Source: Candidatus Saccharimonadales bacterium | GTDB taxonomy: Bacteria; Patescibacteriota; UBA1384; 2-12-FULL-50-11 | NCBI GenBank assembly: GCA_035480235.1 | Contig: DATIHX010000005.1 | Span: forward strand, 551-64,550 | Direction of reading: 5' to 3' | Length of the DNA stretch: 64,000 nucleotides | In this document: positions 10,682 through 62,323 of the stretch, piece after piece | How positions within the stretch are numbered: position 1 is the first letter of the stretch | Layout: each line of letters starts with the position of its first letter | Made by a program: the position numbers and the translations under genes | The notes under the pieces: generated by a model | What the model was told of the DNA's origin: nothing | The model's database searches: none | The model's input: the letters and a program-made list of their open reading frames with translations, nothing else

Positions 10682-12412
10682 TCAAAGAAATAACCGAACC
10701 GTGCGGATCTCGTCGAAACTATACTCGTTACCCAGGCGTTCACGGGCTTGGGACAAAAACATCTGACCTTCTTTGGCTTTGACGGCCAGCAGTGCCGTTT
10801 TAATCGGTTGGAAACGGTCGGTTTTTGGTTTAAATTTAGCCAAGTCAACCGCCGGCACAATTTTGCCGTCTTCAACGAGTTTTTCCAGATGGCCGATGAT
10901 GGTGCCGAATGTCATACCGCGGTGTTTGGCGATGCCGGAGGGCGTCATTTTTTGGTCGATGAGTAACTCACGAGTAATTTCTTGGGTGGGGATTTTTGGC
11001 ACAGCTTTGGCTGGTTCGGCGCCCGGTCCCCCACCGCAAGCTTTCACAAAATTGGCTTGACGTTTAATTAAAACTGTTGGGTCGAGCGATTGAAGCTGGC
11101 GAACGGCGGTCATCGAGGCTTCACGGAACTTGGCGTCCTCAGCCGAGACTTCCGGGTGAACTTCCAGCGCCCGTTCGTTAAAACCGAGTAAATAGAGGCC
11201 GTCGAGGGTCCGGACTCTGGAGAGCGCCACGTAACCTTGGCCAAATTCGAAGGCTTGGCGCAGGTCCATGACAGCGGCATCCAGCGACATCCCTTGGCTT
11301 TTGTGAACGGTAATCGCCCAGGCTAACCGGAGCGGGAATTGACTGATAGCGGCCAGGACTTTGCCGCCGTCGTCAATCGCCCATTCGGCCGGTTCAGCCA
11401 CAATCACTTTACCGCCGCGGGTTTTAATAATCGGCCAGCTATTGGCTCTGTTAAAGCCGATAATCTCGCCCAAAGTGCCGTTGACGTATTGACGCTCCTG
11501 ATGGTTCTTTGTGAACATTACTTTAGCCCCGACTTTAAGAGTTAAAGTCTCAGGCGAGAGGCAGTTGCGTTTGAGGCTATCGATCAACGGTGGCGCGCCG
11601 CGGCTATTCATAGCAAACGATTTGGAAATAGTTGTTAATTTGCCAAGTTCGGTTTCGTTGAGCTGATCAACATTAGCGTTGTGCGGGAACAATTTAGTGA
11701 CAGTGGCGGCCGGCAGGGCGGTGACAATCCGAGCCGTAAACGTGGCGCGAGCTTCGTTAGTTAATTCATTCCGGCGAATAGCGTTGAGGGCACCGAGAAA
11801 AGCCAAGTCGTCTTGACGGTGCTGCTCCAGCAAGTAACAAACGGTGGGGTCGAGCTCCTTCCAGGCCGGCGAAGCGAAGGCGAAAAGGCTGGTGACTTCG
11901 TCGCCAAAGAGGCTTTGTTCCGTTGATTCCTGAGATTGCACCGGCCGGCGAGTGACCGGTGGCAGCTGGAAGAAATCGCCGACTAAAACCACCTGCAAAC
12001 CGCCGAACGGTTGGTTGCCTTGAGTAGAACCGGGCACCTTGGAGGTGCGAACGGCCCGGCAAACCCGTTCTACCGTGGTGAAAGTTTCAGCTGAGAGCAT
12101 AGAAATTTCGTCGATAATTAAGACCTTGGTTTTTTTGATACGGTTAGCAACGCGGCTGTTGGTTACGATATTGGCCAGTTCAGATTTGGTAAGGGTACTT
12201 TTAATGCCGATACCGCTCCAGGAGTGAATGGTCAGCCCGCCGATGTGGGTGGCGGCGATGCCGGTGGAAGCGGTGATCGCCGGTTCGACACCGTTGGAAC
12301 GTAAATATTTGACGTATTCGTTAATAGTATACGTCTTGCCGCTGCCCGGTTCACCCGTTAAAAAGACGTTGTTGCCAGTTTTCAAGATTTCTAAGGCTTC
12401 TTTTTGGGTCAT
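10682..12412 (-). CDS. PIF1/RecD-like superfamily-1 DNA helicase with C-terminal helix-turn-helix
   Basis: ORF track 576 aa; Walker A GEPGSGKTY, Walker B LIIDEISM, VGDFFQLPPV and TVHKSQG motifs typical of the PIF1/RecD clade; C-terminal HTH-like segment (MTPSGIAKHRGMTFGTIIGHLEKL). Confidence 0.8.
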   Translation of the reverse strand: MTQKEALEILKTGNNVFLTGEPGSGKTYTINEYVKYLRSNGVEPAITASTGIAATHIGGLTIHSWSGIGIKSTLTKSELANIVTNSRVANRIKKTKVLIIDEISMLSAETFTTVERVCRAVRTSKVPGSTQGNQPFGGLQVVLVGDFFQLPPVTRRPVQSQESTEQSLFGDEVTSLFAFASPAWKELDPTVCYLLEQHRQDDLAFLGALNAIRRNELTNEARATFTARIVTALPAATVTKLFPHNANVDQLNETELGKLTTISKSFAMNSRGAPPLIDSLKRNCLSPETLTLKVGAKVMFTKNHQERQYVNGTLGEIIGFNRANSWPIIKTRGGKVIVAEPAEWAIDDGGKVLAAISQFPLRLAWAITVHKSQGMSLDAAVMDLRQAFEFGQGYVALSRVRTLDGLYLLGFNERALEVHPEVSAEDAKFREASMTAVRQLQSLDPTVLIKRQANFVKACGGGPGAEPAKAVPKIPTQEITRELLIDQKMTPSGIAKHRGMTFGTIIGHLEKLVEDGKIVPAVDLAKFKPKTDRFQPIKTALLAVKAKEGQMFLSQARERLGNEYSFDEIRTVRLFL

Positions 12413-18364: not shown

Positions 18365-18459
18365 TAGACTGCGCTCCCGCTCGAATTACTGAATTTTCGA
18401 ATTACTGAATTACTGAATTGATTTAGTAATTTAGTAATTAAGTTATTTAGTAATTCCAT
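18365..18459. repeat. AT-rich spacer rpsL-rpsG built from nine phased 8-nt words
   Basis: 18383-18454: gaattact-type x5 then ttagtaat-type x4; the two halves are imperfect reverse complements. Confidence 0.85.
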
Positions 18460-27949: not shown

Positions 27950-28090
27950 AAGTCCATTATACCTTAGTAAAGGTAAAAAATTTTCAATAATTAATATTTA
28001 AGTTACAAGTAATACTTAGAGAATTAATAATTAAGTATTAGAACATTGAATATTATTTGTAACTTAGTTATTGAATATTGGTTATTTCTT
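27950..28090. repeat. AT-rich imperfect long hairpin spacer upstream of obg
   Basis: taagttacaa/ttgtaactta and aatactta/taagtatt complementary blocks; contains TATAAT 6 nt before the obg ATG. Confidence 0.75.
27956..27961 (-). promoter_or_regulatory. consensus -10 TATAAT 6 nt upstream of the obg ATG; leaderless candidate
   Basis: No SD between the -10 and ATG 27947-27949. Confidence 0.45.
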
Positions 28091-31628: not shown

Positions 31629-31657
31629 TTGACTTTTTGATCCGAACACGGTATATT
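31629..31657 (+). promoter_or_regulatory. promoter-like TTGACT-17-TATATT
   Basis: Upstream of ORF 31685-31933. Confidence 0.6.
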
Positions 31658-31684
31658 TTGCCCACGACCCAGAAGGAGGGAAGT

Positions 31685-31933
31685 ATGCACGAAGAGCTTA
31701 GTATTGTTAATGGGCCTGGTTCAGTTGCCATCGGCGACGTATGTCGATTTCTTGTCATGGAAGCACCGGGAGCCGAACAAAGCGAGGTGGTGCGAATAAT
31801 GGACCTTCGTAAGGTTTCTGATGGTGTACATTTCCAGGGCATCGTCGAAACCGAGGGAGCATTAAGCGTCATTAACGTCGAAGGGGTCTATGACCCAAAA
31901 ACGTCTGCCGGCACTCTTCGGTATGAAGCCTAG
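31685..31933 (+). CDS. hypothetical small protein (orphan cassette)
   Basis: ORF track 31637..31933 (TTG); ATG 31685 after GAAGGAGGG; promoter TTGACT-17-TATATT 31629-31657; terminator 31937-31969. Confidence 0.55.
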   Translation: MHEELSIVNGPGSVAIGDVCRFLVMEAPGAEQSEVVRIMDLRKVSDGVHFQGIVETEGALSVINVEGVYDPKTSAGTLRYEA

Positions 31934-31936
31934 ACC

Positions 31937-31969
31937 AGCCCCAAGCGCAATCGCGCCGGGGCTTTTTTT
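31937..31969 (+). terminator. intrinsic terminator
   Basis: agcccc...ggggct with inner gcgc/gcgc stem + T7. Confidence 0.75.
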
Positions 31970-31993
31970 ATACAAATAGTAATTCTAAAGCGA

Positions 31994-32143
31994 GAAATAT
32001 CCTTCTTTGCCGATCCTGTTGAGCCGCCCGGCCAGCCGGGTCTCCAGCCTGCTAATCCGTAGGATAAGGCTGGAGTGGCCAGGCGAGACAAGTTCGACGA
32101 GACCGCTGGGCCGAGGAGATGTATCGGCGGGGAAGGATATTTC
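31994..32143 (+). ncRNA. candidate structured RNA / REP-like GC-rich repeat, copy A
   Basis: 21-bp closing helix (31994-32014 with 32123-32143), inner hairpins 32042-32075; second copy at 61309-61455 on the other strand with compensatory substitutions. Confidence 0.5.
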
Positions 32144-32148
32144 GAGCG

Positions 32149-33852
32149 CTATTCTTCTTTCGTCTCAACAAACGCTAAAATATCGCCTTTGTCGATTTCA
32201 ACGGTTTCACCCTCAACGGAAACACCGCACTGCTCGCCTTTTTCCACTTTGTCGGTTTCGATTTTGCCCAGTTTAAGCGAGCTGGCCTTGGCAGTACCAA
32301 TTTCCTCTTTGTCGCGATAAATAACCAAATCTAAATTCTGGCGGGCTTCGCCATCGATGACTTCGCCGCCGACAATTGCTTGGCCTTTAGCTCGGCTGAA
32401 AACAGCCAGTACTTTGAGGCGGCCAACTTCAGTTTTCACCAAGACCGGCGTGGCGATCCGTTTAATTTCGCTCTGCAAAAATTCGATAACTTCGTAAATA
32501 ATGCCGTATTCCTTAACCACGACACCCTCTTTTTCGGCCAATTCCACCATCCGTTTATTGACCAGGACGCGGAAAGCTACAATTAAAGCCTTTGAGGGCT
32601 TAGCGAGGTTGATGTCGTTTTCCGTCACCGCCCCGATACCGCCGGAGATAATTTCCACAAAAGCATCTTTGTTTTTAAGTTTGGAAATTGAGCCCTCCAG
32701 CGCCGAGAGCGAGCCGCCGACGTCGGCCTTAATAATAATCCGGTAGGTGTTGGCGTCTTCGGCCGCACCAGTTTTGGCTTTGGCGAACGTTTGGGTCATC
32801 GCCCGGGCGACTTTTTCGTTGGGCACGACTTCTAACCGATCGCCAAATTTTGGCACGTCTTTGAGGCCTTGGATCTGCACCGGCATCGCCGGGCCAGCAT
32901 GGTTGATAGTGCCACCTAAATCGTTCAAAATAGCCCGAACCCGGCCAAAAGCTTTGCCCACCACCACCACTTGGCCGGTTCGGAGCGTGCCGTTATACAT
33001 TAGTACGACCGCTAGCGGACCAACTTGTTTGTCGAGGTTGGCTTCGATGACAATGCCCTCGGGTAAAGCTTCCGCGTCAGCTTTCAGTTCCAGTAAATCA
33101 GTGGTTAGTAAAACAATTTCCAGCAGGTTGTCCACGCCGTCGCCGGTTTTGGCCGATACCGGCACCATACTGACTGGCCCGCCCCACTCCTCTGGCACCA
33201 GGCCGGCGTCGGAGAGCTGTTGTTTGACGCGATCGGGGTTAGCGCCCGGCAGATCGGCTTTATTGATGGCCACCACTATCGGCACGTTAGCGCCCTTAGC
33301 GTGTTCAATGGCTTCCAAGGTTTGGGGCTTGACGCCGTCGTCGGCGGCTACTACTAAAATAACCACGTCGGTTAAAGCCGCGCCGTGGGCCCGCAGCGCC
33401 GAAAAAGCTTCGTGGCCCGGCGTGTCCACAAAGGTAATTTTTCGTTTTGGGCCTTCTTTGGTTTTGAAATCTATTTGGTAGGCGCTGATGTGCTGGGTAA
33501 TACCGCCGGTTTCGCCGGCCGCAACGTTGGCCGAACGGATGAAGTCGAGCAAACTAGTCTTACCGTGGTCAACATGGCCCATAATGGTGACAATTGGGGC
33601 GCGTTCGGTAGCATTTTTACTGACGGTGACGGTTTTATTAACGACTTTTTGGGTTTCCGGTTCGGCGACGTAGCCAAATTCTTCCGCAATCAAAGCCGCT
33701 GTGTCGTAATCGAGCGACTGGTTAATTGTCGCCATAATGCCGCCATTAATGAGCGCCGTGATAATTCTAGTCGGGTCGTATTTCAATAAACTTGAAAGTG
33801 ACCGGACGGAAATTTCTTCCGGTAGTTGGATAACTTTCTTTTCGTCAGCCAT
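32149..33852 (-). CDS. infB: translation initiation factor IF-2 (short N-terminus)
   Basis: ORF track 32149..33855 (TTG then ATG); [18 protein letters not shown] motifs. Confidence 0.95.
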
Positions 33853-33999
33853 CAACCCGCTCCGTCTCTGAAATTTTCAAGTAGAAATAACTAAGTGGCA
33901 AATAATACTTAAAGTTTAAATATTTAAAAGATTGATTATTATTGCGAAGCAAATTGGTACGCCAGTCAATATTTGTAACTTGACTATTGGATATTAATT
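33853..33999. repeat. AT-rich spacer gyrA-infB
   Basis: Visibly AT-rich ~145 nt with local hairpin ccaatagtcaa...ttgactgg and a promoter-like TTGACT-17-CGCAAT in minus-strand sense. Confidence 0.65.
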
Positions 34000-42781: not shown

Positions 42782-44772
42782 CTACCGGCAAGTTTGAAAT
42801 CAATTCGGCGGTAACACCCGCAGGAGACCAACCCCGGGCGATTGAATCGCTGGTTAACGGCGTTAACAAAGACCTTAAACATCAAGTACTCTTCGGCGTC
42901 ACCGGTTCTGGTAAAACGTTCACAGCCGCTAATATTATTCAACAGGTCCAAAAACCGACGCTGGTGATCGCTCACAATAAAACTTTGGCGGCGCAGCTAA
43001 CCAGCGAATACCGCCACTTTTTCCCCAAAAATGCGGTGGAATATTTTGTGAGTTATTACGATTACTACCAGCCGGAAGCCTATATGCCCAATTCTGATAC
43101 CTATATAGAAAAAGAGGCCCAAATTAACGACGAAATCGATCGGCTGCGCCACGCCGCCACCCAAGCGATCCTGAGCCGCCGCGACGTCATTGTTGTTGCT
43201 TCCGTTTCCTGTATTTACGGGTTAGGTTCGGCCGAAGAGTACCAAAAAGCGACGTTGGTCATTCGCAAAGGCGACAAACTTGACCGCGATATCCTGCTGG
43301 ATAAACTGGTCTTCCTGCAGTACCAACGCAACGACGTAGCGCTGGAACGCGGTAATTTCCGAGCCCGCGGCGAGATTATTGAAGTGATGCCGGCCAACAG
43401 CCAGCGAATTATTCGCATTACGTTGAACGGCGACGTCATTGAAGACATTGAGGAAATTGACCCGGTCACCAATTCGCCGCTCCAAACGCTGCGCGTCGCG
43501 GTGATTTACCCGTCGCGCCACTTCGTCACCCCACCCGACAAGATTGAAGCGGCGGCGAAGTCAATTGAAGCTGAGCTGGAAGACCGCCTCAAAGTCTTAA
43601 AAAGCCAAGGAAAGTTGCTGGAAGAAGAGCGCCTCCGCCGCCGGACCCGCTACGACCTCGAGATGATCCGCGAAGTCGGTTACTGCAACGGCATCGAGAA
43701 TTATTCACGGCATTTTGACGGCCGCGCGCCAGGTTCAACCCCCAATACTCTTATGAACTACTTCCCCGACGATTTTTTGATGATTATTGACGAATCGCAC
43801 GTCACCGTGCCGCAAATTAACGGCATGTACAACGGCGACCGGGCTCGCAAAGACGTATTAGTGGAACACGGTTTCCGCTTGCCTTCGGCTAGAGATAACC
43901 GGCCGCTAAAATTCCCCGAATTCGAAGAAAAAATTAACCAAGTTATTTACACTTCCGCCACCCCCGGCCAGTACGAAATTACCAAAACCGAAAATACCGC
44001 CGAACAGATTATCCGGCCAACCGGCTTGATTGACCCCGAGCTAATTATCGTGCCAGTCAAAGGCCAAGTGGGCGACTTAATGGAGCGCGTCCGCGGCCGA
44101 ATTGAAAAGGAAGAGCGGGTATTGGTGACAACGCTCACCAAGAAAATGGCCGAGGATTTAGCCGACTATATGCAGGAGCAAGGCATTAAAGTCCGGTACT
44201 TGCACAGCGATATTGAAACGCTTGAGCGCGTCGAGATTCTGCGCGAGCTCCGCAAAGGCACCTTTGATGTGCTAATCGGCGTTAACCTGCTCCGTGAAGG
44301 CTTGGACTTGCCCGAAGTCTCCCTCGTTGCCATTCTCGACGCCGACAAAGAAGGCTTCCTGCGCAGTGAACGGTCGCTGATTCAAACCATCGGCCGAGCC
44401 GCCCGAAACGTCCAGGGCCAAGTAATTTTATACGCCGACGTGATGACTGACAGCCTGAAAAAAGCGATCGGCGAAACCAACCGCCGCCGAGCGATCCAAG
44501 TGAAATACAACACCGAGCACGGCATTACGCCGACGTCTGTTAAAAAAGAGATTACTTCAATTATTGAGCGGGAATTGTCGAATTCCGTCGGCCTCGACAA
44601 AATCGAGAAAGAATTAGCCAAAGGTAATATTGAAGCAATGATTAAAGATAAATCTCGGCAGATGAAACTGGCCGCCCAAGAACTGCAGTTTGAATTGGCC
44701 GCTATCCTGCGCGACGAAGTGGCAAAGCTCAAAAAAATGCAAAAAGACCGCGACGAGCTAACTAACCATTGA
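42778..44772 (+). CDS. uvrB: excinuclease ABC subunit B
   Basis: ORF track 664 aa; [29 protein letters not shown] motifs. Confidence 0.97.
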
Positions 44773-60316: not shown

Positions 60317-61288
60317 TTAACGAGCATTTTTGCGTCTCATTACTTTCTCGACTGCAGCCAGGACGTCGTCGACACCGAGTTTGTAGTGCTCCAGCAGCTC
60401 GTCTGGTTCACCAGACTCACCGAACGTATCGCGAACGCCCACAAACTCAATCGGGACTGGATGATGAGCGGCAACGACTTCGGCCACCGCGCTACCCATC
60501 CCGCCAGCCACTTGGTGTTCTTCGGCCGTGACGATCGCTCCGGTTGCTTTGGCGGATTCGATGATGGCGGTTGAGTCAATTGGTTTAATGGTGTGAAGGT
60601 TAATAACGGCGACACTGACCTTGCCGTCAAGCTGTTTGGCGGCTTTCAGAGCCGTGGCGACCATGACGCCACAAGCGAAAATCGTCACGTCGTCACCGGC
60701 GGTCAGTTTTAAGGCCTTGCCGATTTCAAACGGGGTTTTTTCGGAGGTGATAACCGATACTTTTGACCGACCGAGCCGCAAGTATGCCGGACCGATGTGA
60801 TTAGCTAAAGCCAGGGTCGCTTTGCGGGCTTCAATAGAATCGGCTGGCACAATTACGGTCATATTTGGCAAAACCCGGGTGATGGCGATGTCTTCTAAGG
60901 CTTGGTGAGTAGCGCCGTCCGGCCCGACGGTGAGGCCAGCGTGAGCGCCGACGATTTTCACATTCAAATCAGAATAGCATATGCTAACGCGAATTTGATC
61001 CCAGTTTCGCCCCGGTGAAAAAACGGCGTACGACGCCATAAACGGAATTTTGCCGCCGAGCGCTAAGCCAGCCGCAATGCCAGCCATGTTTTGCTCGGCC
61101 ACGCCGACTTCGATAAAGCGCTCCGGGTAGGCTTTGGCGAAGGCTTCAACGCGCGTGCTTTCGGTTAAATCGGCCGTTAAGGCAACAACGTTCTGATTAT
61201 TTTTGCCCAGTTCCAACAGCCCCTGGCCGAAGCCATCACGGGTGGCAACTTCGATATGTGTTTCGCTTAAGGGGGTTAAATATTTCAT
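60317..61288 (-). CDS. transketolase, C-terminal (pyrimidine-binding) subunit
   Basis: ORF track 323 aa; split-type transketolase second half (EVGVAEQNMAG motif). Confidence 0.9.
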   Translation of the reverse strand: MKYLTPLSETHIEVATRDGFGQGLLELGKNNQNVVALTADLTESTRVEAFAKAYPERFIEVGVAEQNMAGIAAGLALGGKIPFMASYAVFSPGRNWDQIRVSICYSDLNVKIVGAHAGLTVGPDGATHQALEDIAITRVLPNMTVIVPADSIEARKATLALANHIGPAYLRLGRSKVSVITSEKTPFEIGKALKLTAGDDVTIFACGVMVATALKAAKQLDGKVSVAVINLHTIKPIDSTAIIESAKATGAIVTAEEHQVAGGMGSAVAEVVAAHHPVPIEFVGVRDTFGESGEPDELLEHYKLGVDDVLAAVEKVMRRKNAR

Positions 61289-61308
61289 AATAATTCAGCT
61301 CTTCGCTC

Positions 61309-61455
61309 AAAATATGCTTTCCTGCCGACACATCTCCTCGGGCCTGCGCCCTCGTCAAACTTGTCTCGCCTGGCCACTCCAGCCTTATGCTGCGCATTAG
61401 CAGGCTGGAGACCGGCTGGCTGGCGGCTCACAGGGTCGGCAAAAAAGATATTTTT
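61309..61455 (-). ncRNA. candidate structured RNA / REP-like GC-rich repeat, copy B (between the two transketolase genes)
   Basis: Reverse complement aligns with 31994-32143 over the whole length, with compensatory changes in three helices. Confidence 0.5.
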
Positions 61456-61480
61456 CGCTCGCAAGAATGTCGTTGTTGCT

Positions 61481-62323
61481 TTATTCATGTTCACTCGTTA
61501 TTTTACCCCGGAGCGTCCGGAGTTCTTTGATGGCCAGATGGGCTTGCTCGGCGTTGGGCGGTGTCCCATGCCAGTGATAATCGTTCTCCATAAAATCAAC
61601 GCCTTTGCCGGGAATGGTATGGGCGATAATGACGGTTGGTTTTTCAAAAACCGAGCGGGCGTGGCGCAAGGCGCCGATAATTTCATCAAAATTGTGGCCG
61701 TCAATTTCTAAAACGTGCCAATTGAAAGCCCGGTATTTATCAGCCAGCGGTTCGAGCGGCATAATATTTTCGGTGAAACCGTCAATTTGAATGTTATTGC
61801 GATCAACAATCGCCGTGAGGTTATGAAGTTTGTTTTTACCGGCGAACAAAATCGCCTCCCACGTCTGGCCTTCGTCGTGTTCGCCATCAGATAAAATAGC
61901 ATATGTTCGCCACTTTTTAGCGTCCATCGCGGCCCCTAAACTCAGCCCGATCGCTTGGCTCAAGCCTTGGCCGAGCGGCCCAGAAGAGTTTTCGACGCCG
62001 GGTAACTCGCCAAAATGCGGGTGGCCTTGCAGCGGGCTGCCGAGTCGGCGGAGCGTCGCTAGCTCGGAGAGCGGGAAAAAACCGCGGTGAGCCAGCGTGG
62101 CGTACAAAACTGGACAAATGTGACCACAGGAAAGAATCAACCGGTCGCGGTCCGGCCAGTTCGGTTTCTTGGGTTCGATATTCAACACTTCAAAGTAAAG
62201 GGCGGTAAAAACGTCGGCCATTCCCAATGGCCCAGCCGAGTGACCGGAACCGGCCTTCAGCAGCATTTCGATAATCGATTGCCTAATGGCGTTAGCCGTA
62301 ATTTCTAGATTTTTAGTGGTCAT
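61481..62323 (-). CDS. transketolase, N-terminal (TPP-binding) subunit
   Basis: ORF track 280 aa; GSGHSAGPLGMAD and SDGEHDEG motifs. Confidence 0.9.
   Translation of the reverse strand: MTTKNLEITANAIRQSIIEMLLKAGSGHSAGPLGMADVFTALYFEVLNIEPKKPNWPDRDRLILSCGHICPVLYATLAHRGFFPLSELATLRRLGSPLQGHPHFGELPGVENSSGPLGQGLSQAIGLSLGAAMDAKKWRTYAILSDGEHDEGQTWEAILFAGKNKLHNLTAIVDRNNIQIDGFTENIMPLEPLADKYRAFNWHVLEIDGHNFDEIIGALRHARSVFEKPTVIIAHTIPGKGVDFMENDYHWHGTPPNAEQAHLAIKELRTLRGKITSEHE

Follow-up and report, generated by a model that had tools for sequence, protein, structure and literature searches.

Two copies of a structured element between packed genes

The stretch of DNA analysed here, 64,000 nucleotides long and called the window throughout, carries two copies of a G+C-rich, highly structured element of about 160 nt, each wedged between protein-coding genes. 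The window corresponds to positions 102152-166151 of contig CAZWSM010000002.1 (GCA_964636455.1, NCBI label Candidatus Saccharimonadales), and together with 19 kb of extra flank it makes up the 83 kb of this contig that were searched. The nearest relatives of the source genome are mostly labelled Candidatus Berkelbacteria. The genes of the window with recognisable domains are all of the housekeeping type: those for ribosomal proteins, EF-Tu/G and sugar transferases, rpoBC, obg, infB, gyrAB and uvrABC, and a pentose-phosphate/glycolysis operon.

Copy A (Z-A) spans positions 31989-32149 of the plus strand and copy B (Z-B) positions 61303-61459 of the minus strand, the two being thus oppositely oriented in the genome. 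An earlier note, made from the letters alone, had placed both copies correctly, within slightly narrower limits. Over 159 nt they are 86.8% identical (blastn, E 2e-46) and differ by 18 substitutions and 4 indels. The G+C content of the element is 60%, compared with 50% for the window, in which blastn detected no third copy. The NCBI assembly and contigs of three independent Logan assemblies contain exactly this sequence, which is therefore not an artefact of one assembly.

Copy A is located directly behind the infB stop codon, on the strand opposite to infB. This TAG codon (32149-32151, minus strand) abuts the element and terminates the open reading frame (ORF) 32149-33855 (minus strand), which encodes IF-2. 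Relatives share the ending ...KEE-TAG: infB ends with ...EE-TAG in the sister species (L193; IF-2 92% identical) and in L196 and L194 (both 84%; L numbers denote the loci and contigs used for comparison). In L193 and L196 the native KEE-TAG end is followed by the next gene after about 50 nt, in L194 by unrelated sequence, and none of the three carries the element at the infB site. A covariance model did not find it elsewhere in the four infB loci L193-L196 either. On its other side, copy A is preceded by a hairpin and T-run at 31935-31970 (plus strand; GCCCCAAGCGCAATCGCGCCGGGGC and then T7, by direct reading), which the terminator scan had omitted because the loop exceeds its limit. This hairpin stands behind an orphan ORF of 82/98 aa (31637-31933, plus strand) without a homologue in a collection of 5.8 billion proteins, and the idea of tracing relatives through it was rejected for that reason. 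In the sister species the position of the orphan ORF is taken by a different gene on the other strand, and the region downstream of infB is thus a variable spot.

Copy B lies between the split transketolase genes tktN and tktC, in their sense and inside the tkt operon. It begins 21 nt past the tktN stop codon (61481-61483, minus strand) and ends 14-15 nt before the tktC start codon (61286-61288, minus strand), with an AAGAG run in between; the whole spacer measures 192 nt. In the relatives L005, L007, L008, L012, L013, L014 and L016 the two genes either overlap or leave a gap of no more than about 7 nt, and additional relatives from metagenomes likewise have them overlapping or abutting, which identifies the 192-nt spacer as an insertion. 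Empty sites in relatives, suggested earlier as a sign of mobility, thus speak for insertion at both loci. The strong structure of the element and its intergenic position just upstream of tktC could also be taken to indicate a cis-acting regulatory RNA of the neighbouring genes, be it a riboswitch, a leader or an attenuator. We consider such a role very unlikely, as overlapping or abutting tktN and tktC genes suffice in relatives, the other copy has an unrelated setting (downstream of infB, opposite strand), and no Rfam family was matched even at E up to 10.

Neither copy is bordered by a target-site duplication (flanks of copy A TAA|AGCGAG...GAGCG|CTA, of copy B GCG|AGCGAA...GAGCG|AAG). A 5-nt ATTCT duplication around copy A was considered and rejected, because comparison with the relatives reveals the end of infB, TAG stop included, to be native. 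Consensus scans revealed no promoter-like or terminator-like site at either copy, and domain searches found no transposase, recombinase, reverse transcriptase or nuclease among the proteins of the window.

As an alternative, the earlier note had mentioned a conserved short reading frame (ARRDKFDExAGPRRCxG...YFER). This frame is open in both copies, but so are four of the six frames altogether, as expected of G+C-rich palindromes. There is no shared start codon or ribosome-binding site for it, the substitutions track base-pairing rather than codon positions, and gene callers placed no gene over the element in any assembly. A concatenated six-frame query, also designed to pick up ORFs wrongly called over further copies, had no homologue among 5.8 billion proteins. 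A short protein-coding gene is therefore not credible, and we assign it hardly any probability.

Fold and compensatory changes

The RNAalifold consensus of copies A and B comprises 56 pairs arranged as a three-way junction. The closing helix P1 (alignment columns 2-26 with 135-159) consists of two outer G-C pairs, a tandem GA/GA mismatch and then 21 bp. The segments gcgag and gagcg, previously regarded as flanks, hence belong to the structure, as these G-C pairs and the mismatch lengthen the helix. In copy A the arms of this inverted repeat extend over 31990-32014 (5′ arm: GC, tandem GA and 21 nt) and 32123-32147 (3′ arm) of the plus strand, and the 5′ arm contains three doubly compensated and three U.G pairs. 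In copy B, the column-to-coordinate map and the consensus pairs place the 5′ arm at 61435-61458 and the 3′ arm at 61305-61329 of the minus strand. The 21 bp of copy A (31994-32014 with 32123-32143) are 86% Watson-Crick complementary and fully paired when U.G is allowed, in line with the closing helix of about 21 bp with G-U pairs that had been predicted.

The core of the fold is formed by two hairpins. The long central hairpin (GCC-GGUCUCCAGCCU ... AGGCUGGAG-GCC-GGC; columns 47-96, in copy A 32035-32084 on the plus strand) has 15 invariant pairs and a small apical stem of 4 bp (AUCC-GUA-GGAU), in which a C-G pair of one copy is replaced by G-C at columns 69/75. The 3′ hairpin (columns 100-134, in copy A 32088-32122 on the plus strand) has the apex ACC-GCUG-GGC and a compensation at columns 115/122.

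In total, five pairs are changed on both sides and still paired (columns 6/155, 17/144, 26/135, 69/75 and 115/122), and two one-sided changes keep the pairing (U.G to U-A and C-G to U.G). No substitution breaks a consensus pair, and all pairs are standard in both copies; in slid controls, with the 3′ partners shifted by 1-3 columns, only 38-46% are paired. The three compensations described earlier, namely GCCGAT to GCCGAC...GTCGGC, the outer part of the closing helix and the apical hairpin, are all real (columns 26/135, 6/155 and 69/75) and two more have been added to them. Because the consensus fold was derived from both copies, we used as an independent test the minimum-energy structure of copy A alone and mapped it onto copy B. 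Three double compensations were kept (P = 0.0016 in 100,000 random-substitution simulations).

Compared with dinucleotide shuffles, copy A folds with -79.3 kcal/mol (z = -5.4) and copy B with -64.6 kcal/mol (z = -2.9), while the reverse strand of copy A also folds well (-71 kcal/mol, z = -4.4). In either copy, five pairs are U.G and none is A.C. This asymmetry points to the strand named in the earlier note and agrees with one sense common to both copies; with two sequences it is suggestive rather than decisive. The single-strand fold of the element is under purifying selection, as follows from the five double and two single compensations, the lack of broken pairs, the independent P value of 0.0016 and the presence of U.G without A.C pairs.

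The closing helix contains 9 substitutions and 1 indel in 53 columns, the core 9 substitutions and 3 indels in 108, so that the helix has diverged about twice as much as the core. A conserved core together with the strand asymmetry could be accounted for by two paralogous, trans-acting small RNA genes that are processed from longer transcripts and use the core as their functional surface. The low energy of the copy A fold, the occurrence of compensations in the internal hairpins as well as in the terminal helix, and the textbook RNA-like covariation of a second group of inserts in relatives (family X, see below) would fit such genes as well. What they do not account for is the lack of signals at either copy, the flush positions and the empty site in the sister species: copy B is set within an operon 15 nt before the tktC start, and copy A touches the stop codon of infB, a gene on the other strand, and follows the hairpin and T-run of another gene, while the sister species has no copy in the 21.7 kb examined there. 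Moreover, there is neither an Rfam match nor conservation beyond one genome. We judge this main rival explanation to be unlikely, though it deserves to be kept in mind, and the free-standing non-coding RNA gene that the earlier note had put forward as one of its two options is not supported.

The other option was a repeat of the REP or MITE type (MITE, miniature inverted-repeat transposable element). A classical MITE would be a deletion derivative of a DDE transposon, mobilised by a transposase that binds the terminal inverted repeats. The 21-nt terminal inverted repeats (86% complementary), the length of about 160 nt, the non-coding, intergenic character, the presence of two copies and the existence of other repeat-bounded inserts in related genomes all agree with this. 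However, the terminal repeats have diverged faster than the core and are still paired, and there is compensation in two internal hairpins, too, which would have to be ascribed to template switching or chance. Target-site duplications are lacking at both copies, the TAG beside copy A being the native infB stop, and no related transposon was found in the searched collections, the 83 kb of this contig or about 2.1 Mb of related loci. A textbook MITE is thus quite improbable.

Both copies share an identical stretch of 31 nt (ATAAGGCTGGAGTGGCCAGGCGAGACAAGTT), which the alignment places at 32064-32094 (plus strand) in copy A and at 61358-61388 (minus strand) in copy B, and Logan contigs break or switch copy there. 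In contig L002 (SRR9179563), positions 1345-1505 join the 5′ half of copy A to the 3′ half of copy B, and hence the orphan ORF to tktC, the switch falling inside this stretch. Since the copies are inverted, they might serve as recombination sites at which crossing-over inverts the 29-kb segment between them. Yet the stretch is as long as the k-mer size of the Logan assembly graph, which we take to be 31. Contigs L003 and L091 end exactly at the stretch and contig L092 keeps the parental junction, so that the simplest reading of the L002 hybrid is an assembly-graph artefact. The reciprocal junction was not found among the contigs, no recombinase is encoded nearby and inversion would part tktN from tktC. 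Recombination sites are for these reasons a very unlikely explanation. Repeats of this kind break and mis-join short-read assemblies of these genomes, as contig L002 appears to illustrate.

Structured inserts in related genomes

Copies A and B score 194.7 and 180.3 bits, respectively, with the covariance model R1. This model recovered no further copy in the 19 kb of extra flank, in 80 GTDB loci or in 80 tktN-centred metagenome loci, the latter two sets together representing about 2 Mb of related Patescibacteria DNA, and nhmmer found none over the window and the retrieved loci of relatives. The covariance search recommended earlier thus yielded no third copy in either the 83 kb of this contig or the DNA from relatives. 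Exact core patterns (20-mers) are absent from 185,579 GTDB species genomes and from JGI metagenomes. Of three patterns used on IMG/VR, the exact core was absent and the two looser ones matched only unrelated DNA, none of it fitting the covariance model. There was no blastn match in phage and plasmid collections, nor in 5,426 E. coli genomes, which cover ERIC-type repeats, Neisseria genomes being outside this search.

Rfam 15 gave no match anywhere in the window at gathering thresholds and around copy A just noise at E up to 10, which bears out the earlier impression that no known RNA family is involved. 6S RNA, characterised by a long irregular helix with one central open bubble and a single conserved locus, was not matched even at E up to 10; the interior of the element is a three-way junction, and the copy A locus is missing in the sister species. 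The RYYYAAC/GTTRRRY boxes of integron attC sites were not seen at the ends of either copy by direct reading, and the flanking genes are core housekeeping genes rather than cassettes. A retron, bridge RNA or TnpB/IscB guide RNA would have its enzyme gene adjacent, but the neighbours are infB, the orphan ORF, tktN and tktC, and no such domains were found in the window. The searchable literature yielded no description of repeat elements or non-coding RNAs from Patescibacteria. We conclude that the element matches no described RNA or repeat family and is undescribed. As far as accessible data go, it is confined to one species.

At the tktN|tktC junction, other structured inserts (140-190 nt) are present in several of the closest relatives, and one group of these was modelled as family X. 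Its copies are located at 10848-10990 and 12816-12953 in L004, 10848-10990 and 2568-2708 in L009, 6573-6713 in L006/L097, 2648-2783 in L104 and 8325-8470 in L196. Two genomes have two copies each within about 20 kb. Every copy lies between genes of the same direction, 3-8 nt past a stop codon, and four operon junctions are occupied: tktN|tktC, fba|gap, an unnamed gene|trmD and an unnamed gene|obg. Family X elements measure about 140 nt and form a three-way junction with a closing helix of 21-27 bp and an inner GA/GA-type mismatch. The sequence of the closing helix is wholly different between copies, even inside one genome, and the single-stranded motifs CGCAG, GGCAUGG, CGAGAAUUCAAGCG, a CGCUGG hairpin loop and GCGUC are conserved. 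In the model-fitted alignment 31 of 38 pairs are changed on both sides, a count that the fitting biases toward structure. The pair positions are paired in 96% of cases, compared with 70% in shuffles (0/500 reach this value) and 32-55% in slid controls, figures in which fitting again favours structure. At three loci the strand that folds better, as judged from U.G count and energy, is antisense to the neighbouring genes, and at one locus it is sense. No match to family X exists in Rfam. As we read the aligned sequences, the copy at the tkt junction of L104 is closer to the fba|gap copy of L004 than to the tkt-junction copy of L004, which shows that family-X copies at one site are not simply orthologous and argues for turnover at the site.

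A family-X element is also present in the gap of L196 that corresponds to window positions 27975-28090, an A+T-rich palindromic intergenic stretch with 58-nt arms between obg and an ORF of 505 aa.

Other, unrelated helix-bounded inserts of 110-190 nt occur at the tkt junction of Patescibacteria in L146, L172, L069 and L077. Over 142 loci (L004-L172) the tktN|tktC spacer varies across Patescibacteria from a 26-nt overlap to more than 1.2 kb, and among those of 90-190 nt many have a strong structure (z as low as about -7) and sequences that are unrelated, for example those in L146, L172, L041, L077 and L109. The tkt junction was considered as a special hotspot for such inserts. We rejected this, because inverted-repeat matches of that size occur about once per 13 kb over all loci, coding-sequence matches included, and the junction is not clearly enriched against this background. 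The insert in L146 (7924-8056, 133 nt) and one in L018 (802-982, 181 nt), from different genomes and loci, have a near-perfect terminal inverted repeat in common (GAGACTGTAGAAAAAT) and look like a genuine MITE-type family in Patescibacteria.

Family X and the element have in common a long helix that closes the structure and contains an inner mismatch (GA/GA or similar), the three-way junction, a 3′ hairpin with the apex CGCUGG or GCUG, the low copy number, the position behind stop codons and the bacterial clade. Their sizes are alike as well (about 140 and about 160 nt). Homology between them is not established, family X being an uncharacterised group in its own right. The 3′ hairpin of copy A agrees with the family-X hairpin of L196 in 19 of 21 nt (GAGRCCGCUGGGCC..GGAGA; z = 4.1, 0/300 shuffles as good), this being one of 28 comparisons. 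With filters off, the family-X covariance model R3 lists copy A over its full length and in the same sense at 13.1 bits (E 0.56), which is noise level, and copy B is not listed; the iterated family-X nhmmer profile detects neither copy. Homology was therefore not demonstrated, and common ancestry of the element and family X is possible but unproven.

Relation to known repeats and likely nature of the element

Structured repeats in intergenic regions are known from several other bacteria. ERIC-type elements are co-transcribed in operons, form long RNA hairpins and have an orientation-dependent effect on mRNA stability, and for both REP and ERIC elements RNase III-type processing or exonuclease-barrier roles are known. 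REP units are uniform within a genome. The Correia elements (CREE) of Neisseria possess conserved 26-bp terminal repeats, a TA duplication and an IHF site, and occur in hundreds of copies; the element studied here has a variable terminal helix, no visible duplication, two known copies and no sequence similarity to CREE. The intervening sequences of 23S rRNA are sporadic inserts of 90-150 nt with a long closing helix that are excised by RNase III and lie inside rRNA helices. The element is likewise sporadic and closed by a helix, but it is situated between protein genes.

CREE consist of an inverted repeat with a conserved core and are co-transcribed, and RNase III binds and cleaves or protects the folded transcript (PMC2649163). 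They share with the element a length of about 100-155 nt, the intergenic, non-coding character, a conserved core enclosed by terminal inverted repeats and a presence that is polymorphic between related genomes. The ERIC/IRU and RU-1 to RU-3 repeats are described as MITE-like, intergenic imperfect palindromes of 103-168 nt (PMC2759123, PMC2229807). ERIC is a simple long hairpin with conserved ends, whereas the element forms a three-way junction with a core more conserved than its ends, and it lacks sequence similarity to any of the E. coli genomes searched. The REP/BIME/REPIN repeats linked to RAYT are extragenic palindromes behind genes, often in operons, that form single-strand hairpins, with proposed roles in mRNA stabilisation and transcription termination (PMC3733652, PMC3116915); the units are 20-40 nt long, are tagged at one end with GTAG or CGTC and are highly repeated (PMC3733652). 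With 160 nt, ends AGCGAG... and ...CGAGCG without such a tag and a low copy number, the element is of a different make. No RAYT gene or Y1 transposase domain was detected among the window proteins, and the 83 kb hold two copies of the element.

The element thus differs from Correia, ERIC/RU and REP/REPIN repeats in having ends less conserved than the core, no target duplication and very few copies. Its behaviour, by analogy, resembles that of these structured intergenic repeats, and it is most likely of their kind. We lean towards a low-copy, dispersed, structure-constrained, non-coding insertion element of about 160 nt that came to lie, by insertion, in two unrelated intergenic positions, one directly after the stop codon of infB and the other between tktN and tktC. 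From the earlier proposal of a novel non-coding RNA or a REP/MITE-like element, the absence of a known family and the selected fold are retained.

Such an element would ride passively on the transcripts of its neighbours: the mRNA of the tkt operon would contain copy B in sense, and the 3′ region of infB would contain the complement of copy A. In these transcripts the closing helix of at least 21 bp would constitute a double-stranded RNA module and might act as an RNase III-type processing site or as a 3′ exonuclease barrier. For copying, an enzyme encoded elsewhere may recognise this same fold on a single-stranded intermediate, either DNA or RNA. The conserved core and the freely co-varying closing helix suggest that shape and core sequence, not a terminal repeat, would be what is recognised.

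Several points weigh against an insertion element of this kind. Two copies are known and none of the collections searched contained a homologue, so that mobility is deduced from presence and absence and was not seen directly. Neither a target-site duplication nor an autonomous partner was found in the 83 kb of this contig, the related loci or the window proteins. Conservation is lower in the closing helix than in the core, in contrast to terminal repeats that are bound by a transposase. Finally, the U.G pairs are all on one strand, yet the copies face opposite ways relative to the transcription of their neighbours, and a single role at the mRNA level would require the complement to work as well. 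The complement of copy A does fold well, as shown above and as a role in the opposite orientation would need.

A more speculative idea, which we hold to be rather doubtful, is that the element and family X represent one unrecognised superfamily of structured elements in Berkelbacteria-like Patescibacteria. Its members would be three-way junctions of about 140-160 nt with a conserved core and a closing helix that is free in sequence but paired, located behind stop codons. They would have spread by a mechanism that reads shape instead of terminal repeat sequence, through an enzyme acting on single-stranded DNA or at the RNA level, or alternatively would be retained as functional punctuation marks in the operon transcripts of genomes that have hardly any intergenic space. 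Patescibacteria have very small, tightly packed genomes, and the element is wedged exactly between genes that otherwise overlap or abut. It offers an entry point to the questions of how packed genomes tolerate or use intercistronic RNA structure and what moves elements without sequence-conserved ends. The interest in it would rise if the element and family X proved to be one structure-dependent class of mobile or functional RNA in Patescibacteria.

Some further observations concern other parts of the window. No tRNA gene and no RNA recognisable by Rfam was found in its 64 kb, despite the presence of the main ribosomal-protein, rpoBC and translation-factor clusters. A candidate second helix-bounded element at 42847-43007 was rejected because it is inside the uvrB coding sequence, and an argument on replication strands from GC skew was dropped as the skew merely follows gene orientation. 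Between the S7 gene and rpoC, an A+T-rich intergenic stretch at 18383-18456 contains GAATTACTGAATT repeats. A 22-nt A+T-rich motif (AAGTTTCAAAGATTGAATATTC) occurs at 729-750, 1209-1230 and 2389-2410 in three successive intergenic gaps of the ribosomal-protein operon (three matches versus zero expected), always on the strand opposite to the genes and each time within a local palindrome.

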